Part shown: piece after piece, positions 30,579-64,000 of the stretch
Position numbering within the stretch: the stretch's first letter is position 1
How the letters are laid out: every line of letters starts with the position of its first letter
DNA from: a virus
Lineage: Duplodnaviria > Caudoviricetes
Direction: 5' to 3' (one strand)
DNA length: 64,000 nucleotides
IMG/VR virus record: IMGVR_UViG_3300035227_000232
Coordinates: 1-64,000 of that record
Notes under the pieces: generated by a model
The model's input: only the letters and a program-made list of their open reading frames with translations
What the model was told of the DNA's origin: nothing
Databases searched by the model: none
Translations under genes and position numbers: made by a program

Positions 30579-30633
30579 TCTCTGTGTAATATATAATGTG
30601 AATTACGAAGAATACCTTAAAGGAGGAGGAAAA

Positions 30634-42035: not shown

Positions 42036-42036
42036 A

Positions 42037-42594
42037 ATGCAAACACAATTTTATAAAGCGAACCCGAAAGGGACAGGGGCTGCATGTCAGTTCTATCTCA
42101 GCAGTAGCAGTATTATGCTCAGCATGATAAAGCAAGACAGTTGGGACGCAGAAAAGAAAAAGGGCGACTTTAAGAAAAACAAGAACACCCCGACGGGGAG
42201 TCTTTTCATGAAGCTTACTAGAGTAGAAACCGCTGGACTAATAAGAGGGATCGAACGCTGTCAGGAGTGGAGTTGCTATCACCGAAGCCCCACTCAGGAA
42301 GCGTCTCTTAAATTAACTATCTGGAGAGACGATGAATCTGGAGGTAGCCCAAAAGGATATGGAATTACTGGGAATAAGAAGGTAACCACCACAGAACGAG
42401 CAGGGGAAACTGCGTCCTTCTTCGTAACTCTGACCCTAGATGAGGCTCGGTTATTAAAAAGCGATTTAGAAAGCTTCCTTTATGTTACTCTTCAGTCCAC
42501 CGGACATGGGAATAAGACAGGAAAAACGATAGGAGTAAAAGGGAACGCTGGGCCTAAGGAGACTTATTCTAATAGGAGCAACTATCAACAATGA
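42037..42594 (+). CDS. Hypothetical protein, possibly ssDNA-binding (PC4/Whirly-like)
   Basis: Beta-rich pattern and low-complexity tail directly after dnaE; fold assignment is a guess. Confidence 0.35.
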   Translation: MQTQFYKANPKGTGAACQFYLSSSSIMLSMIKQDSWDAEKKKGDFKKNKNTPTGSLFMKLTRVETAGLIRGIERCQEWSCYHRSPTQEASLKLTIWRDDESGGSPKGYGITGNKKVTTTERAGETASFFVTLTLDEARLLKSDLESFLYVTLQSTGHGNKTGKTIGVKGNAGPKETYSNRSNYQQ

Positions 42595-44534
42595 GCGATA
42601 AACTCAAAGTATTAGTTCATACTGATTCGAGCTTAGCAAAAACTGGGTTTGGTCGAAACGCTAGGGCTATACTCTCTCATCTTTATAATACAAAGAAATA
42701 TGAGTTAGTCCATTATTGCATAGGGACACAGGAAAATTCTCCGGTGCTGAAGAAGACCCCTTGGCGTTCAGTAGGTTGTTTGCCTTCAAACCAATCTGAG
42801 TTGGAAAGAATAAATAGAGACCCTACCTTCGCTAGGATGGCTGGATATGGTTCATACTTTATAGATAAGGTAATAGACGAGGAAAAACCTGATGTTTACA
42901 TAGGGGCACAAGATATCTGGGGGCTTGATTACACCGTAGATAAATTTTGGTTTAACAAGATACCTAGTGTAATCTGGACAACTCTAGATTCTCTTCCGTT
43001 ACTTCCCACTGCCGTAGAAAAGGCGAAGAGCATAAAGGACTATTGGATTTGGGCTGACTTCGCCACCAAAGAGATGCACCGTCTTGGGCACAAGCACGTC
43101 AGAACGATGCGCGGATCAGTAGATACTCAATTTTTCCACAAACTTCCAGACTCAGAAAAAACGGAACTAAGGAAGAGACACGGAATCTCCGAAGATGTTT
43201 TCATAATTGGGTTCGTGTTTAGAAACCAACTAAGAAAAACCATATATTCTCTTTTAGAGGGTTTCAAAATGTTTAAATCTCGAGAGCCAAAGGCTCAAAG
43301 AGCTAAACTCCTTCTGCATACTCATTTCTCGGAAGGCTGGGACATCCCTAAGTTGGCAAGCGAATATGGGGTTGACATGGAGGATATACTAACCACTTAC
43401 GTTTGCCGTACTTGTAAATTCTATTTTATTGCAACGTTTCAAGGGCAGGATAAAAAATGCCCCGCTTGTGGATCGGAGAAAGAGGCAGGACTCATCACCA
43501 CTAACACTAATAATGGTGTTACAGAAAGCCAACTTAATGAAGTATATAATCTGATGAACGTATATTGCCACCCATTCACTTCTGGTGGTCAAGAAATACC
43601 GATACAAGAAGCGAAGCTTACTGAACTAATCACATTAGTGACGAACTATAGTTGTGGAGAGGACCTTTGCGTTGATGAAGCTTGCTCTATACCTCTCGAT
43701 TGGAAAGCATACAGGGAACCTAATACTCAATTTATTAAAGCCCAAACTCATGAAAGCTCGATATCTAAACAGTTAGCGAAGGTTTTCAAAATGAAACCAG
43801 CCCAACGAAAAAAGATGGGCGAAAAGGCTAGAGAATGGGTCATCAATAACTTTTCGGTAGAAGTTATATCTAAGCAAATAGAAGATTTTTTGGACGGATG
43901 TGAGAAAACCGATTTTGACTTTAAAAATACGGAAGAGAAAAAAGACCCGAATATACAAATCCCGACAGGGTTAAGTGATAAGGATTGGCTGATATGGATG
44001 TACCACAACATTCTAAAGATGGAGCATGTGGACGAAAAAGATGACGGATACAAATACTGGACTCAAGAATTGGAAAAAGGTACAGACAAGAAACAGATAG
44101 AAGACTATTTTAGACATGTAGCGGTCAATGAAAACAGCAAGGGAGATAATAAAGGCGATCTCACTGACGTCCTTGATGAAGACGATGATGGGAAAAGGAT
44201 GCTATACGTAATGCCTGAGGCGATAGGAGATATATACATATCGACTAGCCTCTTCCGGTCAATGAAAGAACAATATCCAGATTATAATTTATATGTCGCT
44301 GTACGTCCTGAATTCTCAGAGGTCCTAGATGGGAATCCATACGTACATAAGACGATTCCTTATGCTCCGCAGATGGATAGCCTCCCTTGGTTAGAAGGAT
44401 CGAAGACTCACAAAGGTTACTTCAAGATTGCGTTCCTTCCTTTTGTGAATACTCAGAAAATCCTGACTTGGATGCATAACGGATTAACAAACATAGCTTA
44501 CAAAGATTTGAGGTACGAAAATGCACTTGATTGA
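42591..44534 (+). CDS. GT4-like glycosyltransferase with Zn-ribbon insertion, fused to the N-half of a GT9
   Basis: RNQLRK and GGQEIPIQEA motifs; CRTC...CPAC; C-terminal MPEAIGD...RSMKEQYPD...NPYVHK. Confidence 0.75.
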   Translation: MSDKLKVLVHTDSSLAKTGFGRNARAILSHLYNTKKYELVHYCIGTQENSPVLKKTPWRSVGCLPSNQSELERINRDPTFARMAGYGSYFIDKVIDEEKPDVYIGAQDIWGLDYTVDKFWFNKIPSVIWTTLDSLPLLPTAVEKAKSIKDYWIWADFATKEMHRLGHKHVRTMRGSVDTQFFHKLPDSEKTELRKRHGISEDVFIIGFVFRNQLRKTIYSLLEGFKMFKSREPKAQRAKLLLHTHFSEGWDIPKLASEYGVDMEDILTTYVCRTCKFYFIATFQGQDKKCPACGSEKEAGLITTNTNNGVTESQLNEVYNLMNVYCHPFTSGGQEIPIQEAKLTELITLVTNYSCGEDLCVDEACSIPLDWKAYREPNTQFIKAQTHESSISKQLAKVFKMKPAQRKKMGEKAREWVINNFSVEVISKQIEDFLDGCEKTDFDFKNTEEKKDPNIQIPTGLSDKDWLIWMYHNILKMEHVDEKDDGYKYWTQELEKGTDKKQIEDYFRHVAVNENSKGDNKGDLTDVLDEDDDGKRMLYVMPEAIGDIYISTSLFRSMKEQYPDYNLYVAVRPEFSEVLDGNPYVHKTIPYAPQMDSLPWLEGSKTHKGYFKIAFLPFVNTQKILTWMHNGLTNIAYKDLRYENALD

Positions 44535-45717
44535 ATCTTATGCTACCCATTGCGGGTTAAAAATCGATAAACCGTTTATATCGGAGAAATTTTTTCCGTT
44601 ATGCTTCGATAAATATATCACCTTTCATCCTACTACGAAGTCATCTAGATTTTATGACTACTGGCAAGAGGTAGTCTCAATCCTCGCCCCATATTTAGCA
44701 GAGGCGGATATTAGGATTCTTCAATTAGGAACACAAGCTGAACACTCGTATGCCGGATGTAGTCACTTGCAAGGACAAACTAACATTGGCCAAACTGCAT
44801 ACGTACTAAGGGGAGCAATGCTGCACTTGGGCTGCGATAGCTTTCCTACTCACATGGCGAGTGGACTCAATAAAAAAATAGTTTCTACTTACGGGGTTTG
44901 TTCTCCGGGTAATACAACTCCCTACTGGGGAAATCCAGATGACCATAGGCTTTTTCATCCAGACAGGAAAGGAGAGTCTCCGTGTTATAGCAATGAAGAT
45001 GATCCGAAGATGATTAATAATCTGAAGCCTGAAGATATAGCAAGATCAGTATGCGATCTCTTAGGACTAGAGTTCGATTACCCATACAGAACTCTTTATT
45101 TAGGCCCTACTTATTCGAGTAGACTCGTAGAATCAGTTCCCGATTCTTTGGTAGATATAAAAAATCTTGGAATCGATAACCTTATCATTCGAATGGATTA
45201 TTCGTTTGATGAGGATATATTATCTAAGCAATTGCAACTAAACCACTGCTCCATCATTACTGATAAGCCTATCAGTGAAGACATTTTAAGGAACTTCAAT
45301 AAACAGATCAGTGAAGTCATATATATCTTAGACGAAAACCATAGCCCCGAATTTGCGAAGCTTGTCCAAGGGCTTAATATAAAGATGATGCTTCTTTCGG
45401 CTCTCGATGAAGAAAAAATAAATGACATCAAGATTCCCTATTTAGACTTTGATTCTGTGATAACCGAAAAACAAAAATTTAAAATCGAAGAAGTATCGAA
45501 GGAAGGAAACCCACTAGCTGTTTTTAAAGACAAGAAACTAGACGATCTTTTTTATAAATCTTCTAAAGTAACCCTCAGCAAAGAAAAAGTATATTTGAGT
45601 AAGTTAGATTGGCAGAATGGAGACAGTGTTGAATCAACAGACGATATAAGACCAGTAATTAATATAGAAGAATTCTGGTATGACCTAGAATACATGACAA
45701 TATTGGAGAAAATATAA
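44521..45717 (+). CDS. C-half of GT9 glycosyltransferase plus unknown C-terminal domain
   Basis: ITFHP...YWQEV...ILQLG...HLGCDSFPTHMASG...YG motif. Confidence 0.7.
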   Translation: MHLIESYATHCGLKIDKPFISEKFFPLCFDKYITFHPTTKSSRFYDYWQEVVSILAPYLAEADIRILQLGTQAEHSYAGCSHLQGQTNIGQTAYVLRGAMLHLGCDSFPTHMASGLNKKIVSTYGVCSPGNTTPYWGNPDDHRLFHPDRKGESPCYSNEDDPKMINNLKPEDIARSVCDLLGLEFDYPYRTLYLGPTYSSRLVESVPDSLVDIKNLGIDNLIIRMDYSFDEDILSKQLQLNHCSIITDKPISEDILRNFNKQISEVIYILDENHSPEFAKLVQGLNIKMMLLSALDEEKINDIKIPYLDFDSVITEKQKFKIEEVSKEGNPLAVFKDKKLDDLFYKSSKVTLSKEKVYLSKLDWQNGDSVESTDDIRPVINIEEFWYDLEYMTILEKI

Positions 45718-46508
45718 TGAGCAACCCTATGGAACTAAATAAAAATACATCAGCCGATACGAGAGACAATCGCGGGCTGATGAATAATGAACATATAGAA
45801 TACAAATTTAATGAAGACGGCTCTATTGATTGGAGAGCTATGGTCTCAGAGAAATATCTTTACCCGAATAGACAATGGTTCGAGAGCAGAGAGAAGACTG
45901 TTCCTACTTCTATAGAAGGTCTCAAAGACAATCAGCTTCTCATCATGATAGGGGGGCTGAAGGAACTCGCTCAAGTAAGAGGTTATTCGAGCGTGTCATA
46001 TCAAGTTTATACAGCCGAACCTGATTTCGTAACAGTTTCTTGCCAAATAGATTGGCTCCCAAATTATGAGACTCAAGGTAAGCCAATTCAATTTCAGTCC
46101 TTATCTTGTGCGTCGGTATCAAACACTGACGGTTTCGCCAGATATTACCTACCTGAGATAGCAGAGAACCGCGCTTTTACTCGTTGCGTTCGCAATTTCT
46201 TAAAGATCAATATTGTCGGTCAGGATGAAGTAGCAAGGACACCCCAAGAATTATCGAAGACAGCCGAAACCATCGATGTGACCAAGAAGTCTGTAGTGTC
46301 AGATCAGTTTGAGAATAGGGCGAACGTACACTACATGCTGGAAAAACTCATGAGAGATAAAGATATTTCTTTCGAACAGGTCAAAAAGAAATGTATTAGC
46401 ATGAAGGTAGATGGCGCGGAAAATTTTGAAGGCTTACATAATATCCCGAATATCACCGTCTATGAATTAACGACGGCCCTTCAAAAGTATAAGCCTAAAG
46501 AGAGCTAG
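45717..46508 (+). CDS. Rad52/ERF-like single-strand annealing protein (putative)
   Basis: GGLKELA, VTVSCQI and [14 protein letters not shown] pattern. Confidence 0.5.
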
Positions 46509-48718
46509 TAAGCGTACCACATGCCTTCATCTGATCCGTGTGGTTGGGTCCACCAAAAGCCATCTCCATCACTAACAAGGGTTAAGGGTTGGTAGGCGTA
46601 CATGGTACTCATGCCATTACCGTTCGAAAGACCCCCGCTCATACTATTGTACTCGTTGTAAGCGTCATAGATAACATCACTTCCAGAAGCAGAGGCGGTG
46701 ACCTTCACGCTATTCATGCCAATGTCAAAGATAATACAAGTTATCTTCGTCCCCGCTCCTGCGCTGGATGCAGTCGGGAGAGTTAATACAAAATCCTGAC
46801 TAGACCCGTTGTTGTCTATTATGTACAGGGTATCGCCTGTTACACTGGACGTAATATCACCATCTGAAGTAACTACTACCCTAGTTAAACCTCCGCCAGC
46901 ACCAGTAGGGCCTGTGGGTCCAGCAGCACCACCGGAACCTGTAGGACCAGCGGGCCCAGCACCTCCAGCACTTCCAGTAGGCCCAGCGGGTCCAGCACCT
47001 CCAGCAGGGCCTGTCGGTCCAGCAGGACCACCAGCGGGACCAGCGGGACCTGTGGGTCCAGCAGGACCACCAGCGGGACCCGTAGGGCCAGCAGGACCAG
47101 CGGGGCCAGCACCTCCAGCACCACCAGCGGGGCCAGTAGGCCCAGCGGGACCAGCACCTCCAGCACCACCAGCGGGACCTGTAGGTCCAGCAGCACCAGC
47201 AGCACCAGCAGGGCCTGTCGGACCCTGATCACCACCACCCGGACCCGGATCACCTTGAGGACCAGCGGGGCCTGTCGGTCCAGCAGGACCACCAGAGGGA
47301 CCAGCAGGACCAGCAGAACCAGCAGGACCTGTAGGTCCAGCAGGGCCAGCAGGGCCACCAGCGGGACCAGTAGGACCAGCAGGACCAGCAGGACCAGCAC
47401 TACCTGTTGGACCAGCAGGACCACCAGAGGGACCCGTGGGGCCAGCAGGGCCAGCAGAACCACCAGAACCAGTAGGACCAGCAGGGCCAGCAGCACCTCC
47501 AGAACCAGCAGGACCTGTCGGTCCAGCAGGACCACCAGAAGGGCCAACAGGGCCAGTAGGACCGAGAGGACCAGCGGGACCAGCAGGACCTGTAGGACCC
47601 CCAGCGGGCCCAGCAAGACCTTGAGGACCAGTAGGCCCACTAGAACCCACAGCACCTGTCGGACCTTGCGCTGCGGGAGAAAAAGACATCACTAAGATAT
47701 CCGAATTGGAAAAGCTTCCTAACGAATCATTACTAGATACGTTCAGTTTCTTGTAATAACCACCGCCTTCTTCACTCGCTGAAGTGATGGTAAGACTCAC
47801 CCATTTTGTAATAGGGGAATCTTGTTTAAAAATCTTTATCCTTGATCCGAGAACATCATCTAAGGACGCCAACCAAGTAGCTATGTTCCCCCCAGCATCG
47901 AAATAATTAACATAGACTTTAGTGACTGCCATAAGATCAGAATCATTTAATCTTAATTCCCCTGTTCCGGGGTCAGCATCAGTAGTAGAACTGTCGAAAG
48001 TAAATTGATACGAGTCTCCGCCAAACCCTCCAATAGGGCCAGTAGCACCCGTGGAACCCGCAGAACCTGTAGGCCCAGCAGGACCAGCAGAACCAGTGCT
48101 GCCATCGTCGCCATCAGGGCCAGCGTCTCCTTTTTCACCCGTAACAGAAAATGCAACGACTAGTTCATTGTCGTTTCCGAACACAGCAGTAATAGTATTA
48201 CTACTATAAGTAATTGCAGATACGCTTATTTTTCGGTACTGACTCCCCGATACATTCGCTGCATTAATCTTAAATGTTACGAAATTCTCAGGCGCAGACT
48301 TCTTAAAAATCTTGATTCTCCCTCTGTTGGTAGAGTTACTAGAGTTATCGTCGAAGGAATCCAACCAAGTAGTAATATTATTTTCTCCTTGGTCGTAAAT
48401 GCTAATATACGCAGTATCAACTGATGAAAAGTAGCCGGAATGATTAAGTCTCAGATATCCTATTCCGGGGTATGAATCAGTTGTAGAAGTGGAAAATTTA
48501 TATGGTTGCGCGTCTCCTGCAAAACCGCCTTGAGGACCAGTAGACCCCTGAGGGCCAGCAGCACCAGCACTTCCTGTATCCCCAGTTGACCCAGCGGGCC
48601 CGATAGGACCAATAGGCCCAGTGGGTCCAGTAGCTAGTGGTCCGGTCGGCCCGATAAAAGTACTACCTTCTTCAGTCGTAACTGCGTCTTTGTCTAAAAT
48701 TGTTTTTCTTCTAGCCAT
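46505..48718 (-). CDS. Collagen-like fibre protein
   Basis: Three G-P-X blocks separating two ~120-aa homologous domains and a C-terminal domain. Confidence 0.85.
46885..47660 (-). repeat. GC-rich collagen-coding repeat array (GPT/GPA/GGA triplets)
   Basis: Recurring ggaccagc/gggcc units seen directly. Confidence 0.9.
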
Positions 48719-48723
48719 TGGTC

Positions 48724-51700
48724 TTAACTATCCTGTGTTAAAAAACCTTTAAAATAAAACTTACCTTCTAACGCTCCCGCCGTTGCGCCACTGCTTATAG
48801 TCACTATCATATGATCGGTTGCCTTCGTATCATTCAACGCCAGATACCTTTCTCTTTGACCCTCTGTGATTGCATCAATAGCATTCTTATCCGTATACCC
48901 CTCTAAGTCACCACTATAACCCATCATGAACTCGGGGCCAGTTAGAACTGGGTTAGTTGATTCGGTAATTAACAATCCCGCCTCATCCGCATAAAAATAA
49001 CCTTCTGGGCTCATATGAATAACATGTTTTCCGGTCTGAGTAAGGTCTATCTTCTTGGTCATCATGACCGTCTCGGCCATCAGGTGGTCTCTATAGAATG
49101 TGTCAGAGTTTCCGAATGCGGTAGAACCCACATATTTCGTGGGATATATATTCGCCCCCGTATTTTGCGGAAAGATATGAGTACCAGAGAAATGGGGACT
49201 AACGATAAGGTGACCGCCGTTTACTACTTGAGCAACTTCTACGACAGAGGAACCAAAGCTAGATGGGGCCACCTCAGTTAATTGGCCAGAGGTCACGTCA
49301 CTCAAGTAGAGGGGTTGTCCTGCTGTATAACCAGTTATGTAAGGAATCTGACCGTGGGAAACATATTCAAAACTCGATCCTAAAACCGATTTAACCACGC
49401 CTAAGGGAGTCGAAGTGCTAATGTTGTTGGCGCAAGCCTTAACATATCCTGAAATAGCGGGGACGCCGGGAGATACTACAGGTTGTTGTTCGTATCTGAT
49501 TACATCTCCAATCGCAAACCCATGACTCAATTGCCCATGATGAATTATAGTATTAGCTGCTAAATCACCAGTGGTAAGATTAAAAGTGACTGGATTCGTT
49601 CCCAAAACCTGAGTTAGACCGCCGTAAACATTTACTGATCCACCAATATTGGAGTCGATTACAGAGACGTTACTATCAACGTTCTGAGCGTCATTGAAAT
49701 TTTGAAGAACGATTTCGTGTGCATCGATTATCTGCACCGACCCAGAAACATTTAACTGTTTGTTTATCCCTGTGAACGTCATACTGCTGACGTTGCCGAT
49801 TATGTTTCCTGTCGGCTGTTCCAGATGCACAGCCCCGTCGATATAGATATTGACTGTATTTCCTGAATCAAAATTGGTCTGACCGATATTATCGTAAGTC
49901 CCCGTTATCGTAACCGTGGAGTTATGTATCGTGTTAGTGTTTGTAAACTCATTATCCGAAATTGTGCTACTGAAAGTAGGAGAGAAGTTGCTCTGAGAAT
50001 AGTAGCCAACAGCAGAGAATGTGTTATCCCTGTAATCAGCATGTACTCTTGGGGCATTGTATATGTTAACAACCCCACCTGAAATATTTGTAGTATTGCT
50101 TACCCCCGTAACATTATGAACTGATCCTGTTATGGAAGGATTATTGTACTGGTATGATGTAGCCGAGCCAGCATACCCGTAATTGGCGGAGTTCGAGGTG
50201 TGCGTATTGTACTGATAATGCAGGGCCTCTGGGCCAATATGATTTATATCTGTAAACGCACCGCTGTGTTTTTCTATATTCCTGAACTGGTAAACATTTG
50301 TTAGGCCACCGGATATTATAACCCTAGCATCATTAGAGGTTCCATCTGTTTGAGTATACCAAACATTAATTTCGTTCGGATGATCTGTGATGTTGGTAGT
50401 TCCGTGGTAAATATCTATATCGTGACCAGAAACATAGGAGATCGAACCTCCTGTCACTACCATAGTACTATTATACAGCAAGACATCCTCACCAGAAAGG
50501 GTGACGTAATTAATTCCTCCTGAAATATCGATGTTGCGACCAGTGAATGTATTTATGCCACCAGTAATATAAATGTTGCTGCTGTCGCCTTGGAGGATAA
50601 CATCAGAATCGTGAATATTATTGCTGCCCTGATAGATATTTACCCCAGTAGCATAATCGAGATTCGTTAAACCGGAATTTATGGTTATTGATCCAATACC
50701 ATCAGAGGCATACACCGGAATATTCGTCGTCCCAGTATAGATATTAGCGGTCTCTATCAGCTTCCCTGTTACATTTCCAGTTATGTACGTAGTCCCTCCA
50801 GTGATAGTCGTAACTTGAGTCAGATAATTCTTTATTACCGATGAGGAGGAAGCATCAACCGTTTGGAGCAATGAATTGTCTATGTTCGCTACGCCCGAAC
50901 GATTGTCTATGTAGTTGGTGTTTAAGCCACCTGTAATATTCAAGTTAGAGAAGTCGTTGGCTGTAACCGTGCTTTCATACACGAAGATATCACCATCTGT
51001 CTGAGTGGCATTAAGAACGCTGGTAGTGAGGTTTATTGCATTGTTCTGACCAGTGATAGAAGTCGTACCATCTGTAATATTAACCGTGAAGTCCGTGCCA
51101 GTTACCGTTACTCCCGTATTGTATTGGAGATGGAAGGTTCCGCCATAAGCATCAATATTATCAATATCTTGGTTATGGTTGATGTAGTTCGTGCCACCCG
51201 TGATTCCTACATAGTGGCCTGTTATATCATTTATTCCTCCGTCAACCTGTATAGTTCCGCCCGTTACAGTATTAACGCTATCTTTGAGGGTAAGGTTCGC
51301 GATATCTCCGATGATTGTTGCAGTACCACCATCGATGGTATTATCTCCACCGCTAATATTTACGATCTGATCGTCTCCTCCAGATATGGCATTAACACCG
51401 CCCGTAATCCTTAAGCTAGTTATCGCATCAGAATTAACATTAACAGTACCGCTAATTACCGTATTTACATGAGAATGATCACCCGTAAGATTTACCGTGT
51501 TGTTGGTACTCTTGTTGAGGGTGTTATATACATTTAAGACACCTGACCCTGTGACAGTGTTTCCTGTAGTTACGAATGATCCGGTCGTTACCGAATTATC
51601 CGTGTTGCGTAGCGTCCCGATGTAAGCTGCGTAAAGTGTTAGATTATCACCTTCAAGGTCGTTAATGCCTCCAGTAATAATAACATTCTCAATGATTCCA

Positions 51701-54700
51701 GTAGCATATTGAGTACCACTAAATATTTGATTGATGGTGACGCCAGAATAAAGGTTTTCGACATTTCCAGTGATGTTAATGAAGCCACCTTCTTCAATGT
51801 AATGTCCAGAAACGGTAGTCGCTCCTGTAAAGATGTTTTGTGCTCTCGTATATATTTCGTTATGACCGCCTGTCACGAATATGGCATTCGTGGTTTTGGC
51901 CAAATCGAGATTGGAGTCGTATGCGTATACGGTCGATCCAGAGATGATTGGATTCGACCCTGTTATGTTCGCTGTTCCAGTAATGCTAATTGTGTCAGCA
52001 TCGTAGATATGAATCCCATCAGACCCAGTGATATGAACAATTCCATCACCAGTTATTGAAACCTGATAAACGTTTCCAGTGTTAGTGAAAGTGTTTGTAC
52101 TGCCATAATAGGAACTGGTACTTTGAGAAATGCTATTTGTGAAATTCGCATTCAGGAACAAATCTGATCCAGACTCAAGGACGATATCCACGGTTACTGG
52201 TGAATTGTCCTTGGTAAAGACTTGGCTACTAGAATTGTTTGATGCATACCCCCCAGCGGGAGATGCCGTCGATGAGTAATATGTCGATAAATCTATAGTC
52301 GAATCTCCTACGTGACTTCCAATATCCAGCCTAATAGCACCAACTTCTTGATCGGCACTTGCCGAAGTAGTGGCCACCGCGCCACCGCCATAGTAACTCG
52401 AAGTAGCATAACTCGATTGAGTATTCTCGTAGTTCTGGAAAGCGTTTACTGTTAGATCACCCGATTGATAGTCGATATCAAAATCACCAGTGCTCGTTCC
52501 GGTTAGGTAAACATTTCCAATAATTCCGGTGTCGATATCCAGAATCCCCGATCCAAGGAAGATATTAGTTATCTCGCTGTTGTTTACATAGAAGTTATCT
52601 ATGTTCGACTCAGAATAAATATTATTACCACTTCCAGTAATGATTGTGTCCGTCAAATCGAGATAAGAAGAAAGCTGGATAGTCCCGATAGTCCCGCTAA
52701 TCAAATCGATATCGAAATCACCTATATTTCCTGTGTGATTTAGCGTTCCTATCGAATGATCAGTGCCCGCTTGACTTATACTTTCGATAGTTCCTGTGGA
52801 CTGCCAATTGGTAATGTCTCCGTACACATATGTGCCAGTTGGCATATACAGGTAATTGTCCCCTCCGTGAATATCTATCTGCGAATTAGTACCCGTAATC
52901 GTAACTTCGCCCGAGTTGATGGTTAAATTATGTCCATCGCCCGAATGATAAATAAATATATCCCCTTCCTCTACGGATATGGAACCTGATCCAGTGACAG
53001 TGTTCCCTGTAATCGTGGGCTTATTATTTATCGTTATGTCCCCACCGTAGCTATGAATAGTATTATTTAAACCGCTACTCAGGGTTGCTACGAATCCAGC
53101 ACCACCAGAAATGTAATTAATTCCTCCTGTTATATAAGCCGAACCGGAGATGTGACTTACTCCACCGCTTATGTAGTTGGTGCTATTGGTAAGCGTCAAT
53201 GATGCATCAGAGCCAGAAGCAATATTTACCTCTATGTCGTTTATACTTTCTTGGACTGTGATTTCACCACCTGTGATATTAGTGTGGCCGGAGATTATTG
53301 TTACCGTGCTCGTGTTTATGTAGTTTGTATTTCCGCCTGTGTAGTGGTTTATCTCCACTGAACTTTCATCTACATCAACGTTACTAGTAAGAGTGTTGCT
53401 GTTTAATGTTACGTGACCGCCTGTTACGCTAAGGTTATTTACGGTTCCCGTTATCCCCACCGAGCCTGATGCATATGGTCCCGTGAAATATCCGGTCCCC
53501 GAACCTGTAATAGTAACATTAAGAGGACCATTGGTAATCCCTATGACCAGATTTCTAACCGTGTTTAACTCTACGTCTCCAGTAACTAAACCGCTTTCGT
53601 GGACCGATGGACCATATGCAGTTAAACTCGAAAACGCATTAGTACCCCCCAGACTCACGGTGTTGAACGTATTATGAGCCTGTGAAATTGTGCCAGCATT
53701 TATATTCTGAGAACCCGTTAAATAAACGTTAGAATAATTGGCGTTGAAAGTATCTATAAGGTGATGGTGGGTGGCTGCATTATCATGCGACGCCAAATCA
53801 ACATCGATGTTGGTTGTTCCACCAGCTTGAGAGGTAGCGGTGATGTTGTTCGTCCCTGCGTTGCTTGATCCAGCCTCAAACGTATTCCCTGTGATGTATA
53901 ACTTAATATCCGTTAGCTCATTTCCTGTGGCGTAGATATTTGTGTCTTGTCCAGACATCAAATTCACATAACCGGAATGAAGAATATTGAACGTGTTCAC
54001 GCCTCCGGTGACGGAATTCACGTTGTCGGTAGTGATCGTATTAACGCCACCCGTTATGGCCCTAACATCCCCACTGACGACCATAGTATTAACACCGCCG
54101 TCTAAACCGACGGTCTGGGAAAACACATTGTTAACGCCACCGGAAAGGGTGGCTGTGTTGGTGAATATGTTAGCTACTGAATCATAGATACTATTTTCAC
54201 ACCCTGAATTAATGGCGACGGTCGATCCAGTTATGCCGATGGTGAAAGTCGGACTTGCTCCAGATGCTATGCCACTTCCTATATGTACTAAGCCACCAGA
54301 AATGTGCGCTATTCCAGTATCGACATTAACTACGCTCCCATCTTGTGGGAAGAAGTAGTTATCATTTCCATATATCCCAAGCTCTCCGTACAGGTCTGCC
54401 GTTCCCGTAAGGTAAATGCTTTCATTACCTGAGAGAGAATTAGTACCTTCATAAATGTTGACTTCACTATCTGAAATAGAATTTTTGCCACCAGAGACAG
54501 TAACTTCTCCAGTTATATTTACTATTGATGTCGTCCCAGAAACATTAATAAGAGTATTGCCAGCACCAGTAATGAAATAACCCGTATAGATATACTCTCC
54601 GGGATTAGTATACGGACCATTAAAGACGGTTACGTCACTACCAGTAACGTCTACGATACCGCTATTAAGAATCTGAACATCACTATCTTCTACATTTACT

Positions 54701-57700
54701 ATGCCACCTGATAGATTCGTGAAGTAAGCATTTCCGTCATAAATGTTCACGTTCTCTCCAGTGAAGTACTGGTTACCTCCGGTAATGGAAATATCATTTA
54801 GAGCGTTATAAATATGAACGTCACTATCGTAAATTATGTTAGTCGATAAATTTCTGGCCCCAGTAACGTATACGTCATCAGCACCAGAGAAAGTGTTATA
54901 GCCACCACTTATTCTTACGTCGAATATGTTTGTGGCGGTGACGTAGTTGATCTCTTGGCTATAATCGTTTACCGTGATTCCCGAGCCCGTGAAATGGAAT
55001 GTATTCCCAGAGCCAGTGATGCTGTAGTACGAGAAGTCACCAGTCTTATCTATCTTTAATACGTTATTGTAAGTATTAGTTTGTGTTATCTCAGTTATCG
55101 TCTGATCAAAATACGGATGATAACTATAGTCGTTTAAGGTAATTCCTGTTCCAGTGACGCTTACTGAATGGCCACTCCCCGTAACAGTCATGAACGTTCC
55201 AGATTTTTCTATCTGGTAAACGTTTGTGATTTGCTGTCTGTTGTCCTCAACAGTTATTCCAGTACTTCCGGTTATTGTGAAGGTCTGGTTAGTGCCAGTG
55301 ATGGTTACGAACGATCCCGATCTATCTATCTGGTAAACGTTTGTGGTATTTCTTGTATAATCATTTACGGTAATCCCGCTCCCAGTGATCGTTATTGAAT
55401 TTCCGTCTCCCGTGATGCTGTAGAACTCTCCAGTTTTATCTACCTCATAAACATTTGTGGTCTTGCTCGAGTAGTCATTTACAGTAATCCCACTACCAGT
55501 AAACGTCAGGACATTCGAATCTCCCGTGATGCTGTAGAACTCTCCTGATTTTTCTATCTCGTATACATCTGTATATGAATAAGAGGAGGAGTAATCATTG
55601 ATAGTCGTTTGCCCTGAGCCAGTGACAGTAACGTTATCCCCAGTAACCGTTATGAATATTCCTGTTTTATCTACATCGTAAGTAACATTTGAGGAATAAT
55701 CATATATGGTCGTCTGCCCAGAGCCAGTTATTGTATTGTTGTCTCCTGATACCGTAATAAATACGCCAGATTTTTCTACGAACCCACCATTATAAACATA
55801 CGCATCCCCATCAAGGACTCTTATCGTCGCATTGTTATCACCCGAGATTGTTATATACGTTCCAGTGTTATCGAAGAACGTGTTGTAATTCTCGGTAGTC
55901 GAATAATCGAATGTCCCAGATTTTTCTACAACAGTAGTCGTTGTAGTTTTTGTGGAATAATCTTTTATGGTCGTCTGCCCAGAGCCAGTGATAATGTTGT
56001 TGTCACCGCTGACGGTGATGTAGACTCCTGTCTCGTCGATTAGGTTAACCGTCGTATATCTGTTGGAGTAGTCTTTTATGGTCGTCTGCCCAGAACCAGT
56101 GACGATATTCTCATTTCCATTTACGGTAATATAAGTTCCAGTTTCCTCAATTAGGTTAACCGTCGTATATCTGTTCGAATAATCGTTTATTGTCGTTTGG
56201 CCAGAGCCAGTGACGATGTTCTCGTTTCCGTTTACGTCTATGAAAATTCCACTCTTATCTATCGAACTCCGTGTTACGTATCTATTGGAATAATCATTTA
56301 TGGTCGTTTGTCCCGATCCTGTGACGATGTTATCATTCCCGCTAACATCTATGAACGTCCCGCTTTTACCGACGGTGGTGAACGTTCTGTTCGTGACGGT
56401 AAAATTCCTAACCTCTACGTCACCAGCACCAGTAATATTATTAGTAGTGTTATTCCCTGTTATGGTAACGAATGTTCCGCTCCTTGCGATTGCAAAAATA
56501 TCGTTCCGGTTGATGTACTGGCTATAGTCATTTATCTCCGCAAGCTCATTCCCCGTAACATTAATAGTATTTCCGCTCCCGGTTATACTTACGTAATGGA
56601 AGTCCCCGCTCTTATCTACGAAAGCGGTAATATGATTCGTGGTATTGAAAGTATCTCTATCATCGAGGATGATATGATTGTTCCCGTTAAAGAAACGATT
56701 CAAATACCCACTAATATAAGAACACTCACTATCGTAAAAGAAATTATAAAGGCCACTTATCTCTGCATTTCCTGTGAAATTATAGAAGTAGTTAAAGCCT
56801 TGTAAGATATCACAATCATCAGTGGTGATTTCGTTATGGCCCGCTTGAGTCGTTACTCCCGTGGAATAAACGTAATTTACTCCCAGCTTAATTTCGACAG
56901 GACCACTGTATATATCATTTATACATCCAGAGATGTTAATCGTCGTGTCATCATAAGCGTTGATGAATGCGCCTGAGCCAGTGTGGTGCAGATTCACAGT
57001 AGATGTGTTATAAGAAACGACATCAACTGTTTGGCCTGTCTCTATGTAAATATGCCCAATCGAGTTATTAAGCTGAGCGGTTAAATTAGTGTCTACCCCT
57101 GTGAAAAAGGCAGTACCGCTATATACGCTAGCTGAATATACGTTATCAGCGACGAAGCTGGAATCATACGCGGTGATAGTAGAATTCCTATCTATGTCTA
57201 TCTGAGTACCGCTATAGATAGGAACAATTCCGTGATAAATACTTGGGTAGTCCCCGACGTTTACCTGACCGGAATAGTTTAGGATAGTATTATTGGTCGC
57301 AGTTACATCTACTCCCATCCCCGACACGAAAGTCATGGTGACATTTTCGCCGTTTACAATCCCCGAAACTGTTCCTGTAAAATTAGTAGTACCATTAGTT
57401 ATCGTGGCCATCTCAACATCAGTCATGTTGACTGTAGAACCACTTATGATTGGGCTTTCTACGCCTAGAAAAATAAAGTCATCTCCAGAAAGATTTACGA
57501 AGTTAAGACCTCCTGTAATGTAAGGACTACTCGGCGTATTTACTACCGTGTGCCCGCCTGACAAACCAACGATACTAATATTTACACCTGTAACACTATT
57601 GACAATGCCCGTGATGGTTACTAGATCATTATCATAAACTAGAATATCTCCGGTGCTAAGCCCAGAGATGTACACATTATGTGCATTTGTAACTGTTATG

Positions 57701-60700
57701 TTTCCTGACGCTACGAGATTTGCGCTCGCGCCGGAATTAAAGAAAATATCATCTCCTGTTATAAGATTTTCACCGCCGTGGATGAAAACCGTACTCCCCG
57801 AAATCCTGTTATCGCCAGAGCCATAAATTGATACATTCCCGCCTATGACATCAAGGTTTCCGCCGTCATGAGTTATGGTCGCTGTTCCTTCTCCCGAAAG
57901 ATTTATAAGTCCTACATCTCCTTCTATAGTGTTGTTTCCATAATAGATCGTTCCCGTAGGAAGAGTATTAAACCCTCCGTATACTACGTTACTGGAAGGA
58001 GAATTTATTATCGGGTTTGAAGGATTATTTAAAGTGGTCGTTCCTTGATTTACCGTTACATCAGTTGCAGACCCTATGGTGGTCGTGCCACCTGAAATTG
58101 CGAATCCCCCTGTTCCTATATCTACAGTAGAATCAAAGAAGTACGATGTGTCGCTCGTGACATTAACAGTGCTTGATCCAGTATAGCCACTGAACGATAT
58201 GTTCGGAGCCATGCCAGTAACGTTAGCTTCTGTCGCTCCATAGACATATGTATTAGCGTTTCCTCCGCTCTCTGGATTTTGGTTTATCGTGACAGTAGAT
58301 AAACCTGTAACAAAATTCGTTCCATGATTTATTGTTAATTCACCAGAAAGATCGACAAGATTAAGACCACCGCTTATTGTAATCTCTCCACTAAAATCAT
58401 TTTGCAGAACATTAGTGCCCCCACTAATTATGACAAGATTTCCGGTTACATTAGTTAGTCCCCCCGCTATGATAGCCTGACCGAAACCAGTTACTAAAGC
58501 TGTGCCATTAGAATTCGTGTTATCTACGGTAACAATTGAACCATCACTAAATTGTAAGATGTGCGGAACATTGCCAGAGGCGTTAGAGTTATAAACGGAA
58601 ACATAATTCCCATCTCCAGAAAGAGTGATCAATTCGCTACCCGAAATATAGTTATTCGTTGTAGCTCCTGATACACCAAAGATATTTACTAAATTGCCGG
58701 AACCAGTATTAGAAAAATTTGAAAAGTCTAGCCAGTTATTTCCGTGATAAATATCTACGACATTGCCAGTGATAAGATTTTGTTGGGTGTAAACTACGAA
58801 CCCACTTGAAGGATGCGAGAAATCTCCTCTGACTACATAGATTCCAGTATTATCCGTCGGCGTAAAGTGTAGGCTCTGATACGCAATACCGATAGACGGA
58901 TCATACATATTAACGCTTGCGCCAGACCCTTCGAACGTAGTGATATCGCTATTCGTAATATTTACGATTCCACCGAACACATTTTCCGCTGATGTATTGG
59001 CATAGAAGTTAACGACTCCAGAGTTATGGACTTGCGTGTCAACACCGCTAGTTATATTAAGTTCCCCTTGAATTGGGTTTGTTATGTCCACCGTTCCTGT
59101 GTAGACATTCATCGCCCCGTATACGGACGGAGAATTGACTCCATTAAAGATATCTAAATAATCAGTGGTAATCGTATTTACGCTATCATAGATATAATTT
59201 CTACTACCCGAGAGAGAGACGACGCTGTCGTTGATGGCCGTGTTTAAAACCCTCGAAAAATTTCCGTATGCACCGATAGTAACACCACTACTGTTCTGAA
59301 TAGTTTGATTCCCACTCGTTATATTTATGTTCTCTGAACCAGTGATAGTTATTGTGTTTACTTGCTCATTTATGTCTATCCCCGTGGAACTATGGATATG
59401 GATAATGTCGCCCGTGACATGAGCCAAAGAAGGGTTATTAACAGTTAGATTAACCTCATAAGCATCTCTAGCATCGACGTAAGAAATCCCTCCTGTAGCA
59501 TTTAACTCAAGATCGTATTCAGTACTGATAGTGTTGGTCGAATCATAAGCGTAGACAACAGAAGCATCGCTAATCGATACATTTTGATCAGCACCATTAA
59601 TATATGCAGTATTAAGCTCGTTAATGTAAGAGTTCGATAGCGTCAGATTAATCGTTTGATCCCCGGTTATGTACGTGGAATAAGTTCCATAACCATTCTC
59701 ATCACCAATGTTTAAAGTCGTGCATTCCGACCCGCTATTGAAAGTTACTATTCCCGTATGAGAAGTAATGTTTGCCGTACTTAGGACTGCGTCGCCTTGA
59801 AAAATTGCATAAGGATGAATGTCGATATTCGCCGTGGTCGGGTTCATCGTCCCCATGAAAATACCGCTGCCTGTGATATAGGCAGTCATAGTACCATTCG
59901 ATGTGATGGTATTGTCTCCGTACCAGACGTTGATATCTGACTTACCCAAATAACTGTCATCGACAGTCATTGTATTAACGCCACCCGTTACTATTAGATA
60001 TCCCCCGGTCTTTGCATGTAGGGCATTAACGCCTCCCGTAATATTGATTGGCACAGAGGAGCCGGAAGCGTTGTTCAGTACATTAATATTAGTAGTTAAG
60101 AGATCGCGGTTTACAAACTGTACACCAGAATAAATTGTGATGTAATTCTCCTGATATCCGTAGTTCCCATTAGAGAATGATGGGGAATAATGTCCGCCCT
60201 CCTCGATATTGTTTTCTATAGTAGTATAAACTGGTGCTGGTTCATCGCCGGATACGTAATCCGTTATAAGGATGCTAGAGTGTGTGACATCAAGGGTTCC
60301 CGTTCCAAAAGAAACGATAAAAGAAGAGTCGCTACCGGAAACACTGACTACTGAATCTGATATAACAGCATTACTTTGCTCTATATAAACTGGGTCTACA
60401 GTATTAACATGCGTAGTACCACTCCATATGCTAAACGCAGCACCCGTGGCGTTTATGTTGCCTCCTGTTATATAATTGCTGCCTCCTGAGATATGCACGA
60501 GCCCAGAATTCGCGATAGTCTGTTGTCCTCCGATGACCTGAAAAACTCCAGCTTCGTCTAAATCAATAGTGTTGATACCACCAGAAATATTTATATTACC
60601 AGTTATATTACCGGAGACATTTAGGATACCGCCATAATTTGAAATATAGTTATCGCCACTAATGTCTACACTTCCGCCAGAATTCCAGATGTTTAAAACC

Positions 60701-62130
60701 CCGCTGTTCCTGTCAATGAAAGCACGGTTTAAATTATAGACCGTATTTTGTGATCCGGGTTCAATGACAAACAAATAACCAGTGATATCAGCAATAATAT
60801 TGGAACCATGATAGTTCCTCATTAAGACGGTCGAACCTATCCCTACATTATTTACTGAAAGCTGCTGATTCGAATCATCAATATTTAGGGTGATTACATC
60901 GTTAGTTCCACCGTCTACGGTTATGTCTCCAGCCGGATTGTTTACGTTGGTTGAATACGTAAGCTGCTCGATTACACCACCTGTTATCTGGACTCCAGCA
61001 GATGAAACGTCGATGTTCTTGATTGTATCTCCGGTGACTGAAGCGTTGCCTCCATCTTCCACAAACACATTTATACCACTCTCAAAATCTAAAACGTTTT
61101 TACCGTTTACATAAAGCCCCCCGCTAATATTAACGTCCTTATGAAGAGTGAGAGTGCTTGTCTTAAGGAAATTTTTTCTAATCTCGAAATCAGGAAGAAC
61201 ACCCTCGTATAAATGTACTGATTCTATGTTCCCGGTGAAGTGGTTATGGGTATGTGTCTCTCCCGTGTTATACCCTACTAGAAATGGCTGATCGTTATAA
61301 GATATTGCAGCCCCAGCTTGAGAAGAATCTCCTGTTATATATTTTCCATTAGCGTAAATGCTATGGGTCGTTCCGTCCCACTTCGCCGTAACGTAATGCC
61401 AGCCACTCCAATGTATATCATCTACCGCTACTTCTGAGGCTGAATCGTCAAACCTAATCCTATGGACAAGTCTTCCAGAATTATAATAGTGAAAGCCATA
61501 GCTCGTATCATTTCCTTTTGTTAGCTTACCAGCTACGAAGTTTCCTTCTCTGTGCCCTTCTTGAGTAGGATTAAAATACATCCCGAAAGTAAATACCTCA
61601 GGACGGATGGAGCTACTGTCTTCGATTCTTCCGAAATCGCCAGTTTCATCGACAATGAATTGATTGACATGAAACTCAGCCATCTGACCCGTACTCACGA
61701 ATGATAGATCATTTTCGTAATACGATTGGTCATACCACTGTGCCCCAGTACCATGATAGCTGTCTAATTTGGAGGCATCTAAATCTAAACTAAGCCCTGA
61801 CTTAACAATGGAGTTGGGGTCATTTGCTATCGTAGACCTAAGAGGAATCCCATTTATATAATAATCTCCAGCATTAAGGAACAAGCTTCCACTTTGTACG
61901 GATAAGTCACCACCATAGATCGTTACATTTTTATCGAAGAAAGCGTCACTGTCATGAACGTGAAGAGCACCGAAAAGCTCGGAGTCTCCCTCTACTAATA
62001 AGCCCGTCCCTTTGACATGAAAAAGACCAGCGTTTACCTGTCCCAACTCATTAGAGAGGTAAACGTTGACATCCTGAGGTATCGGCACAAGCTCAGGAAT
62101 GAAACCCGTAATTATCGTACAATTCGCCAT
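48724..62130 (-). CDS. Giant 4468-aa virion fibre/adhesin: LamG domain, long T/G/N/S/I beta-solenoid, C-terminal phage fibre domain
   Basis: [11 protein letters not shown]...[10 protein letters not shown]...YANG...[11 protein letters not shown] (LamG); repetitive beta-strand pattern; C-terminal [11 protein letters not shown]...GQPLYLSD...GQLTEVAP. Confidence 0.8.
54960..56620 (-). repeat. ~35-37 aa tandem repeats within the giant protein
   Basis: Units such as (V/I)(D/E)K(S/T)GxFITVxGxxNxxTGSGxTxINDYS; DNA tggtcgtctgcccaga recurs. Confidence 0.85.
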
Positions 62131-62142
62131 TAAATCATCATC

Positions 62143-64000
62143 CTAGCATACCCTATAAGCAGTAAAACCTGTAATCTCAAAATCCCCGAATTTTATTGTT
62201 TTCACAAAATCTAAATTATCACCCGAAATCGTAAATGATCTAAACGGCTGACCAGCGACAGGGAACACTCCATCTACCCTCATGGGTCTCACGTTCGTAA
62301 AAATACCCGTAGAAACAGCGATTTCCCCTACAATATTCTCAGCTAAGAGATGACCAGAGCCACTAAAAGAATACGGAGGATTGAAGCTAAGTGAGTAGTC
62401 ATCTGAAATAATTAAGTTATCTGCAAATCCAGATACTGACGGGAATGAATCAAATCCACTAAACATAACTCCCGTAATTTGAGAAAGACTGTATCCCTCC
62501 ACGGAAACTGAAGTGTTTTGATATCCAAACTTCGGGGAAAATGAATTTATCGTCGGTAATGGTGGCAATAGTTGATATTTTTCATCTTTAAATAATATCC
62601 CATCTAGATGCCCTATTTCATTAAGGAAATGCATTCTCCCTGAAACGAGTGCTGATACCTGTGCCTCTGGGGTGGATGTTTCGAAAATGGGGTCCTCAGC
62701 TATCAAAGCAAAATATCCACTTTCGAAATATTCAGTATCTGCGTCGTATGGTAGAACCCCAGAAAAATAAGAGTATCCGGGGTACGTATACGTAGGTGGA
62801 TCACCGCTATCGCCATTAAGAAATATATCAGTTCTACCAAGACTTACCCCACCAGCTTTATTGTTTCCGGTATAACCCAGAACGAGTGATCTAATAGCAT
62901 TAATCCCAGAGACACAAAACTGTGTAGCAGCGAATCTAATTGTATTTGGCGAAGATGGATTCTTTAAAGTCACACCTTCTATAGTCGGGATTACCGTGAA
63001 ATTTCCTATATCTGGATAGTAAAAGGCGTTTCCCGCTATTCCAGAAACGTACACTTGCGAAGAAAAAGTTTCTTTCGGTACTTGAAACGTCGCTCCAGTT
63101 TCATTCGTGTATATAAGATTGTCCCCTTTAAGAGTATTAGCATCCGTTACACCATCAGCATTTCTGAAGAAAAATTCTGCTCCTGATAGATTAAGTCCAG
63201 ACACAGTGATTACATCAGAATATCTCCCAGATAATGGAGTCATGCTTTGGACAGCAGCATCAAAAATTACATTAAATTCATTAGCAGAAGAAGTGGAGCC
63301 TCCCTCATTCGTCACTCTTATCTCTCCATCTATAGCGTCATTAGGAACGTTGACTCCGATTGCCCTATTGTTTAGTAACTTAAAACTAGTCGAATTTATT
63401 CTGGACTCTGTTTCATTCTCTCCCGAAAAATCCACATTAAGAGCAGAGGGCATCCTTGCACCGCTAAGGATTATGTAATCTCCTCTTCTCCCAAGGGGGG
63501 GATTGATATCATCTATAGAGACAGGAGACATCAATAACTTAAAATCCTCGCTTGAGGTAGCTCCCCCACCTGTCGCGACGATATGAATCCTATTATCTCC
63601 GACTAACGAATCAGGTACTTTAAACTGTATTTCCCCAGAGCTTATTACAGTGTCTGCGTCATTCTCTATCCCTGTTATGCCATTCACCACAAACCCAGAA
63701 GCGTGAATATATCCCCCGAACCCAATGCTTGAAACGTTTATGTAGTTGGCTCCCGAAACCGTGATAGTCTCCCCAGTGAGGCCGGACGCTGGAGAGAATC
63801 CTTTTATGTAAGGAGGAGGTATTACTTTAAACGGATGGCCTACCCCGGTGTGCCACTGATCATAGCGATTACTTAATACAATCTCGTAATCTATAGTTCC
63901 TGATACTGCTGATTCATATTTATTATCATATCCAGAAAGAGAAACAGTTTCTGGAACAGAAAATCTAAGTTGATCACCATTGGTTATATCCCAACTATCT
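62143..64000 (-). CDS. IPT/TIG-repeat structural protein, 5'-truncated by window edge
   Basis: Repeated PxIxxFSP..G...G..ITISG units; I read the frame open from 63999 down to the ORF-track start at 63690. Confidence 0.75.
   Translation of the reverse strand, partial: DSWDITNGDQLRFSVPETVSLSGYDNKYESAVSGTIDYEIVLSNRYDQWHTGVGHPFKVIPPPYIKGFSPASGLTGETITVSGANYINVSSIGFGGYIHASGFVVNGITGIENDADTVISSGEIQFKVPDSLVGDNRIHIVATGGGATSSEDFKLLMSPVSIDDINPPLGRRGDYIILSGARMPSALNVDFSGENETESRINSTSFKLLNNRAIGVNVPNDAIDGEIRVTNEGGSTSSANEFNVIFDAAVQSMTPLSGRYSDVITVSGLNLSGAEFFFRNADGVTDANTLKGDNLIYTNETGATFQVPKETFSSQVYVSGIAGNAFYYPDIGNFTVIPTIEGVTLKNPSSPNTIRFAATQFCVSGINAIRSLVLGYTGNNKAGGVSLGRTDIFLNGDSGDPPTYTYPGYSYFSGVLPYDADTEYFESGYFALIAEDPIFETSTPEAQVSALVSGRMHFLNEIGHLDGILFKDEKYQLLPPLPTINSFSPKFGYQNTSVSVEGYSLSQITGVMFSGFDSFPSVSGFADNLIISDDYSLSFNPPYSFSGSGHLLAENIVGEIAVSTGIFTNVRPMRVDGVFPVAGQPFRSFTISGDNLDFVKTIKFGDFEITGFTAYRVC

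Follow-up and report, generated by a model that had tools for sequence, protein, structure and literature searches.

O-Glycosylation of repetitive, surface-displayed proteins is known from several described systems, with which we compare a strong and unusual excess of Ser-Gly and Thr-Gly dipeptides (S/T-G) in large fiber proteins encoded at the end of a 64,000-nucleotide window, with which an 89,413-bp IMG/VR viral contig begins (IMGVR_UViG_3300035227_000232; CheckV completeness, ~56%). In TibA, a GT9-related enzyme that is encoded beside its substrate and acts in the cytoplasm heptosylates Ser-313, within an NSGG motif of the beta-helix, and the glycosylation sites have a "patterned solenoid-like" distribution (PMC4358343). 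The GPT threonines of BclA3 receive O-GlcNAc from SgtA, which is encoded beside bclA3 and accepts Ser too (PMC7157674). TMEM260 O-mannosylates the first two strands of IPT/TIG domains in plexins, cMET, RON, and fibrocystin at the sequon P-x6-P-x3-P-x2-G-G-x3-T (bioRxiv 10.64898/2026.09.21.753134). Among phages, mycobacteriophage glycosyltransferases (GTs) O-glycosylate their own virion proteins, and the glycans, so far as the statement of Freeman et al. 2023 as cited in PMC12619734 goes, lie at the C termini of capsid and tail-tube subunits, not at repeated fiber turn motifs.

The original prediction, drawn from the sequence alone, held that S/T-G saturates all three structural proteins of the window and serves as the sequon of a phage-encoded virion glycosylation system. 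We confirmed that the bias is real, and we suggest that S/T-Gly is probably a structural, strand-terminating motif of the repeat beta-architectures of the side fibers, for which modification is not needed; the computations available do not separate a glycosylation sequon from a turn motif, and the interpretation leans toward the latter. Positions 46505 to 64000 consist of three minus-strand genes, A, B, and C, and because lambda-like tail-tip genes adjoin them, they are read, with a further gene, D, as the side-fiber module of a large siphophage:

46505 to 48718, minus strand: protein A, 737 amino acids (aa), a collagen-like tail fiber with globular domains between three collagen runs
48724 to 62130, minus strand: protein B, 4468 aa, a giant fiber protein with, from N to C terminus, an N-terminal domain, a Laminin_G_3 domain, an irregular beta-solenoid-like repeat region of ~3800 aa, and a conserved C-terminal domain
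61180 to 61632, minus strand: Laminin_G_3 (concanavalin-like) domain of B, residues ~167 to 317
49681 to 61155, minus strand: repeat region of B, residues 326 to 4150, with 266 S/T-G
48724 to 49680, minus strand: conserved C-terminal domain of B, residues 4151 to 4468
62143 to 64000, minus strand (full gene to 64434, outside the window): protein C, 763 aa, with ~8 IPT/TIG domains
Farther along the contig, with the lambda-like tail-tip genes: protein D, 898 aa

Dipeptide counts were scripted on translations of the window and of its 89,413-bp contig, with the expected number of S/T-G taken as (S + T) x G / length. The original prediction had proposed such a comparison for each protein, and across the contig it confirmed the enrichment in B (288 versus 124.6 expected; ratio, 2.31; z, 14.6) and in C (38 versus 16.0 over the full 763 aa, or 2.37; 31 versus 12.0 in the 618 aa inside the window), with a smaller excess over composition in A (45 versus 32.6; 1.38). 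Ser or Thr precedes 53% of the Gly residues of B, and SG and TG are the two most overrepresented of its 400 dipeptides. For the 515-aa part of C, the ~24 dipeptides counted earlier proved to be exactly 24, accounting for 24 of 53 Gly (45%). The excess is directional, since G-[ST], with the two residues reversed, shows no enrichment (B, 1.07; C, 0.31), and in B nearly all other residues are depleted before Gly (N, 0.31; V, 0.29; I, 0.48). Thr is as frequent as Ser at the sites. The pooled non-virion proteins of the contig read 1.15 (120/104.5), in keeping with the earlier observation that the bias is not evident in cytoplasmic enzymes.

The same ratio in control proteins was 0.56 to 1.30 in T4 gp34, gp35, gp36, gp37, gp10, gp12, and wac, 0.75 in T5 pb1, 0.71 to 1.61 in the virion proteins of Synechococcus phage S-CBS4, and 0.93 in the Escherichia coli autotransporter Ag43. 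The highest control value with solid counts was that of T5 pb4 (1.87); T4 gp20 reads 2.34, on five sites only. The bias is therefore specific to this phage group relative to the other phages checked. Chance as the cause was rejected by the z score of B and by shuffles, and a nucleotide-level cause was rejected because non-virion genes lack the bias, which persists in relatives only 31 to 41% identical in protein sequence. Linkers generically rich in Gly, Ser, and Thr were rejected as well, as they would not leave G-[ST] without enrichment.

Within the proteins, the excess follows architecture. The repeat region of B carries 266 S/T-G versus 113 expected, and the laminin G-like (LamG) segment of B (residues 96 to 325) carries 9 versus 3.8 (shuffle P = 0.0045), including all seven tetrapeptides quoted by the original prediction (residues 109 to 297). 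In the C-terminal domain of B the excess is not significant (10 versus 6.8; 1.47). The three globular domains of A read 1.03, 0.39, and 0.91, and its long collagen run reads 2.03; D (1.34), the gpJ-like fiber (1.03), and the tape measure (1.17) lack the bias. The claim that S/T-G saturates all three proteins is thus too broad: what carries the bias is repeat beta-architecture and collagen, and being a virion protein is not enough.

In B, the sites mark the ends of strands. The recurring motif is [VI]-x-[IV]-[ST]-G-(G/S/D), with I or V at position -1 of 45% of sites (3.1 and 1.9 times background) and V or I at -3 of 37%; S, G, T, and D (D, 10%) predominate at +2, N is commonest at +4, I or V returns at +6, and neighboring sites are mostly spaced 7 or 9 residues apart. 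From this pattern we infer that each unit is a short beta-strand that turns its hydrophobic face inward and terminates in [ST]-G, whose Ser or Thr would point outward by strand alternation. An AlphaFold model of residues 1201 to 1800, built on a five-sequence alignment and used for secondary-structure position only (predicted local distance difference test [pLDDT], 50), is all-beta, with uniform strands of 4 to 6 residues and turns of ~3 residues; at this low confidence it places Gly outside a strand at 38 of 43 sites and Ser/Thr as the last strand residue or the next one at 23 of 43. The original prediction had named confinement to beta-turns and burial as outcomes that would speak against a modification signal. 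Judged from the hydrophobic -1 and -3 positions and from two models of low to moderate confidence, the sites do lie largely at turns; burial is not expected, as the inferred strand alternation would turn the side chains outward.

In sequence searches B has few points of comparison. When residues 90 to 330 of B were scanned alone, they matched Laminin_G_3 (PF13385; 56.4 bits versus a cutoff of 27.6; E = 5e-15); a scan of all 4468 aa at once returned no Pfam match, this domain included. B had no match in cultured phages, only chance hits in PDB by sequence or profile, no PATR repeat match, and only weak ESM Atlas neighbors. Of 1.84 billion cluster representatives, the profile of residues 1201 to 1800 recovered only four, and its own giant relatives make up three of these. 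By sequence, the repeat region of B is an orphan, and since it matches only its own family, it offers no cellular or GT-free comparator.

Protein C can be placed in a known fold. It matches IPT/TIG (PF01833; 29 bits versus a cutoff of 20.9; E = 1e-6), a family also precomputed for its cluster; scans of viral contigs with C alone and with its alignment found no match. Seven anchored repeats align, six of which carry [IV]-[ST]-G-x-N-[FLY] at one column, and this column aligns to "TITGQNF" in the solved Bacteroides TIG protein BACOVA_02650 (PDB 5E7H), so that the strand motif T-[IV]-[ST]-G-x-N-[FY] is common to C and the solved domain. Smaller S/T-G clusters occur at "P-x-S-G" and at two other turns. 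In an all-beta model (pLDDT, 66; 75 to 89 over residues 205 to 420), the sites lie at strand ends or within turns of two to three residues. There are ~4.75 sites per domain, of which ~two are explained by canonical positions. On the TIG consensus, the acceptor Thr of TMEM260 would presumably fall two residues before the [ST] of [ST]-G, and T or S occupies this position in four of the seven C domains. TMEM260 differs in being a eukaryotic endoplasmic reticulum enzyme whose acceptor is not the residue before Gly, and no homologue of it turned up in the window.

In A, the bias is a matter of collagen. The protein matches Collagen (PF01391; 73 bits versus a cutoff of 27.2) as well as many PHROG tail-fiber and collagen-like minor-tail families, and its 107 G-X-Y triplets, in 10 runs, carry Pro at X in 61 and Thr at Y in 27. 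The T-G excess arises because a Gly-Pro-Thr triplet precedes the next Gly, so what the original prediction saw in A is confined to the collagen runs and does not extend elsewhere in the protein.

The bias is conserved in relatives. Giant relatives of B at 31 to 41% identity have ratios of 1.88 to 2.41, and relatives of C at 77% and 31% identity have ratios of 2.38 and 2.19. Across four B relatives, the Ser or Thr of an S/T-G site stays Ser or Thr in 74% of cases versus 47% for other Ser/Thr, and its Gly stays Gly in 74% versus 57% for other Gly. About one-third of the retained sites exchange Ser and Thr, and where Gly is kept, the preceding residue is Ser or Thr in 591 of 684 cases and Asn or Asp in 17 of 684. 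This retention pattern indicates that selection acts on a beta-hydroxyl residue followed by Gly. More widely, the 134 large proteins of the group fall into 32 BLAST clusters, 12 of which pool at >=2.0 and 20 at 0.3 to 1.7. In the biased clusters G-[ST] reads 0.3 to 1.5, and position -1 is mostly hydrophobic, as often are +2 or +3. One biased cluster differs in having a repeated N-x-Q-[ST]-G-[VIL]-A unit. For A, B, and C, BLAST found no homologue in two complete relatives, of 209 kb (G004) and 170 kb (G005), which encode other biased proteins (2.0 to 2.9; z, 4 to 7) beside large Gly/Ser/Thr-rich proteins at ~1.0. In the 209-kb relative, two adjoining proteins are built of N-x-Q-[ST]-G-[VIL]-A-R-I units and read 2.1 to 2.8 (L102 3233-8911, that is, G004 103233-108911).

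A second dipeptide is affected in the opposite direction. Asn-Gly occurs 46 times versus 105.8 expected in the virion proteins (0.43) and at 0.95 in the other proteins; the ratio is 0.31 in B (48724 to 62130) and 0.28 in the tape measure (genome positions 78196 to 89412), which has no S/T-G bias, and T4 fibers have Asn-Gly at or above expectation. Among 81 relatives' proteins, which are not independent of one another, the S/T-G ratio tends to fall as the Asn-Gly ratio rises (rho = -0.49). No dipeptide is more prone to deamidation than Asn-Gly, and its depletion possibly reflects avoidance in long-lived particles; avoidance as the sole cause of the S/T-G bias is not established.

Taken as a structural motif, S/T-Gly would work as follows. 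In B, each strand would place Ile/Val inward at -1 and -3 and end in an outward Ser/Thr and a Gly, followed by G, S, or D and often Asn; the Gly would provide the backbone angles for a tight arc, and the beta-hydroxyl of Ser/Thr would cap the turn. In C, S/T-Gly would close the IPT/TIG strand motif T-[IV]-[ST]-G-x-N-[FLY] and recur at a few further turn positions, and in A, T-G would be the automatic outcome of Gly-Pro-Thr triplets. Ser/Thr may stand in place of the turn formers Asn and Asp because Asn-Gly and Asp-Gly are chemically labile, a disadvantage in a long-lived extracellular particle. Such a motif accounts for the periodicity of the sequence context, the place of the sites in canonical TIG domains, the T-G of the collagen triplets, the absence of the bias from nonrepeat domains and other virion proteins, and the lack of any GT tied to a protein-glycosylating family. 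Several observations weigh against it, and the first two fit it less well. T4 and T5 fibers (0.56 to 1.3) and the beta-helix autotransporter Ag43 (0.93) are unbiased, so the bias is not general to fibers or beta-helices, and Asn or Asp is all but excluded before retained Gly, although structural ST/Asx turns usually interchange them with Ser and Thr. Distant TIG proteins differ from C in reading only 0.85 to 1.51 over their whole length, the bias is seen again in 12 families that BLAST keeps apart, including one with the nonhydrophobic context N-x-Q-[ST]-G, part of the Asn-Gly depletion of B is arithmetic because Ser/Thr fills half of the pre-Gly positions, and the models of the B fragment (pLDDT, 50) and of C (pLDDT, 66) are of low to moderate confidence.

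The case for glycosylation depends on the GT genes of the window, of which the original prediction had counted at least eight. Seven GT-like genes have family support: Capsule_synth, GT11, and one half of a GT9 lie above the Pfam cutoff, and three GT1-like genes and one GT25-like gene lie below it. The window further encodes PMM, GlmS, Gmd, an epimerase, UDP-glucose dehydrogenase, a CapK-like ligase, an aminotransferase, and two FkbM methyltransferases. The genes are distributed as follows:

9232 to 11401, plus strand: GT1-like GT368 (368 aa) and a KpsS-like capsule-synthesis gene
17410 to 28671, plus strand: glycan-synthesis island with GT1-like, GT25-like, and GT11 genes, two FkbM methyltransferases, a CapK-like ligase, an aminotransferase, UDP-glucose dehydrogenase, an epimerase, and Gmd
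42037 to 46508, plus strand: cassette of p185, GT647, GT398, and p263, downstream of DNA polymerase III alpha and convergent with A

The cassette holds the GT genes nearest to the fiber module. GT647 combines a GT-B/GT4-like part with the N half of a GT9 fold at its C terminus, and GT398 carries the C half of that fold, which binds the nucleotide sugar, at its N terminus, followed by a domain of unknown kind. GT9 heptosyltransferases have both Rossmann-like halves in one polypeptide; here the fold is split over overlapping open reading frames (ORFs) (42591 to 44534 and 44521 to 45717; window 44200 to 44990), and every relative seen shares this split, which rules out a sequencing error. The GT398 half matches PF01075 (37.1 bits versus a cutoff of 22), aligns by hhalign to E. 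coli WaaF at 92.5% probability, and has 1PSW as its best PDB match; the GT647 N-half motif (residues ~536 to 590) aligns to WaaF residues 2 to 55 at 60% probability. By sequence comparison, then, the GT9-like domain looks like a lipopolysaccharide (LPS)-type heptosyltransferase split in two. Membership in the autotransporter strand-loop-strand O-heptosyltransferases (BAHT; TibC, Aah) was rejected, as the GT398 and GT647 alignments gave hhalign probabilities of 0.3% and 0.4% against an annotated BAHT (L016:288-1508), and no TibC chain was among the PDB matches of the cassette proteins; the GT647 and p263 profiles had no PDB match. The GT-B part of GT647 contains an invariant CxxC...CxxC (C272, C275, C290, and C293; window 43404 to 43470, residues 272 to 293) that looks like a zinc-ribbon insertion. 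The sole cultured-phage match to GT647 was the first GT of Synechococcus phage S-CBS4, with 27% identity over 40% of the query; in that cyanosiphophage, genes for a glycosyltransferase, a galactosyltransferase, and a methyltransferase stand between those for the portal and the prohead protease (L117 9916-12282).

The cassette is widespread. All four loci that extend downstream of a B homologue (L004, L006, L009, and L010, with L009 a duplicate of L006) carry it at 46 to 66% identity. A search with GT647 matched 142 viral contigs, and in the 80 whose context was examined (L017 to L096), the order is conserved in nearly all, including complete genomes of 170 to 209 kb (corresponding to window block 39459 to 46508). 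It directly follows polymerase III alpha wherever that flank is present; L074, L075, and L094 show no GT398 or p263. In many loci the convergent proteins downstream of it read 2.1 to 3.9, and in L019, L030, L078, L083, L091, L093, and L096 it adjoins unbiased proteins or ordinary tail genes, the unbiased large proteins reading 0.3 in L019, 1.3 in L083, 0.9 in L091, 1.4 in L093, and 0.6 in L096. Its adjacency to a biased fiber is therefore not constant. G004 and G005 keep the cassette, Gmd, and GT368 (52 to 55% identical), with a weak match to the epimerase; most of the 11-kb glycan island, the KpsS-like gene, PMM, and GlmS found no match in them. Fragmentary relatives are uninformative about the island, as their records are 22 to 23% complete. 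No GT-free relative with biased homologues was found, every relative with enough DNA carrying the cassette. As cassette and bias co-occur throughout one lineage, they make a single evolutionary observation and provide no independent contrast.

Against this background, we consider it unlikely that phage GTs O-glycosylate outward Ser/Thr at hydrophobic-[S/T]-Gly fiber turns while the fibers fold in the cytoplasm. Candidate enzymes would be GT647/GT398 with p185 and p263 and perhaps GT368, with a GDP-6-deoxyhexose supplied via Gmd, and the product would be ladders of sugars on the solenoid and the TIG array and also on the GPT threonines of the collagen stalk. Several observations argue for such a system: hydroxyl and Gly are conserved while Ser and Thr exchange freely and Asn/Asp is nearly absent; the directional bias spans 12 BLAST-separate fiber families, each relative examined has the cassette, and the fibers of T4, T5, and S-CBS4 lack the bias; and here and in the closest relatives the cassette adjoins the fiber genes. 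The precedents also point this way. Like TibA and AIDA-I (SSGG repeats; S/T-G ratio, 1.6), which are served by BAHT enzymes, B appears to be a beta-helical surface protein with many Ser in short turn motifs, and the B pattern and its low-confidence model would be compatible with the place of the BAHT acceptor Ser, in a short loop between beta-helix strands. TibA, AIDA-I, and BclA3, whose acceptors occupy matching structural positions, and animal receptor IPT domains, O-mannosylated close to the corresponding strand, would make S/T-G glycosylation chemically reasonable by analogy, and virion O-glycosylation exists in mycobacteriophages as cited in PMC12619734. The differences are substantial. 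The GT9-like domain of the phage, the one GT here whose family has protein-glycosylating members, is divided between two ORFs and aligns to WaaF, no GT of the window is detectably related to a protein O-GT, and modification in TibA was seen on Ser alone, whereas the phage motif uses Ser and Thr equally and with a stronger bias (2.3 times). The cassette tracks polymerase III alpha with inconstant adjacency to the fibers, exposed nonrepeat domains and the gpJ-like fiber are unbiased, so that the bias follows repeat beta-architecture and not virion exposure, and the co-occurrence of cassette and bias is a single phylogenetic event. Further, ~290 sites in one protein would be far above any known case, and the 11-kb island is unmatched in complete relatives that keep biased fibers. 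Nor did the parallel with animal proteoglycans drawn by the original prediction survive: Ser-Gly xylosylation sites there are flanked by acidic residues, and in B positions -1 and -3 are hydrophobic (I/V), with no acidic residue among the commonest. In its full form, in which an uncultured marine siphophage lineage hyper-O-glycosylates its giant side fibers at hundreds of hydrophobic-[S/T]-Gly turns per chain by means of a conserved cassette with a two-polypeptide GT9-like enzyme, we regard the proposal as quite unlikely.

It is very unlikely that glycosylation is limited to the Gly-Pro-Thr triplets of the A collagen stalk, with a purely structural bias in B and C. No gene lies nearer to the GT cassette than A, which has 27 GPT-type triplets in 107, and like BclA and BclA3 it presents GPT in bacterial-type collagen with Thr before the next Gly, a Thr whose O-glycosylation by a neighboring GT is established for BclA3 and SgtA (PMC7157674). 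The carrier there is a spore exosporium and here a phage tail fiber, GPT is widespread without proven glycosylation, and A has few relatives (3 in its BLAST cluster). Collagen-like proteins of bacteria and phages, glycosylated or not, commonly have Thr at Y. The chances are about even that the GTs have nothing to do with the virion and serve host LPS core or capsule remodeling against superinfection, or phage DNA modification, leaving the dipeptide bias independent of them; this concerns the role of the GTs and is compatible with a structural motif. The GT9 halves resemble LPS heptosyltransferase II, LPS or capsule synthesis is the typical setting of KpsS-like, GT25-like, and GT11 genes, in at least 80 contigs the cassette sits within a block of replication and nucleotide-metabolism genes, right behind polymerase III alpha, and the island varies between relatives, as expected of host-surface genes. 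Against it, the window ORFs scanned include no Wzx/Wzy, ABC exporter, or lipid-carrier priming transferase, and for DNA modification a check for a hydroxymethylase via thymidylate-synthase families gave ordinary ThyA/ThyX in relatives and was uninformative.

Either outcome would matter. If S/T-Gly is structural, the motif defines the repeat of an orphan giant fiber family and suggests that long-lived marine virions swap labile Asn-Gly turns for Ser/Thr-Gly, a testable idea about durability. If the sites are glycosylated, phage virions would be glycosylated in a new way that can be read from sequence, so that fiber glycosylation could be predicted from metagenomes, and the GT cassette that at least 80 viral contigs conserve, complete 170- to 209-kb genomes among them, would have a function. 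Hyper-O-glycosylation would then be an independently arisen analogue of autotransporter heptosylation and provide the first sequon-like signature of phage fiber glycosylation.

The rest of the contig gives some context. It holds replication, sugar-metabolism, and tail-tip/fiber genes; no capsid or tail-tube gene was identified on this ~56%-complete sequence, and no close cultured phage was found, polymerase III alpha being at most 31% identical. The tail-tip genes beyond the window match PHROGs for gpM, gpL, gpK, gpI, and a 1482-aa gpJ-like central fiber, which is followed by a 3738-aa ORF, the putative tape measure. The replication block holds a tubulin/FtsZ-like gene (window 30538 to 31851), and its PHP domain (35263 to 36078) and polymerase III alpha catalytic core (39459 to 42035) are separate genes. 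In the side-fiber module, D, C, and B share one reading frame (window 62128 to 62148; L002 2432-2443, that is, genome 64432-64443): a single codon separates the D stop TAA from the ATG of C, and GAT GAT GAT TTA separates the C stop TAG from the ATG of B, so that read-through at the D/C and C/B stops would give fused proteins.

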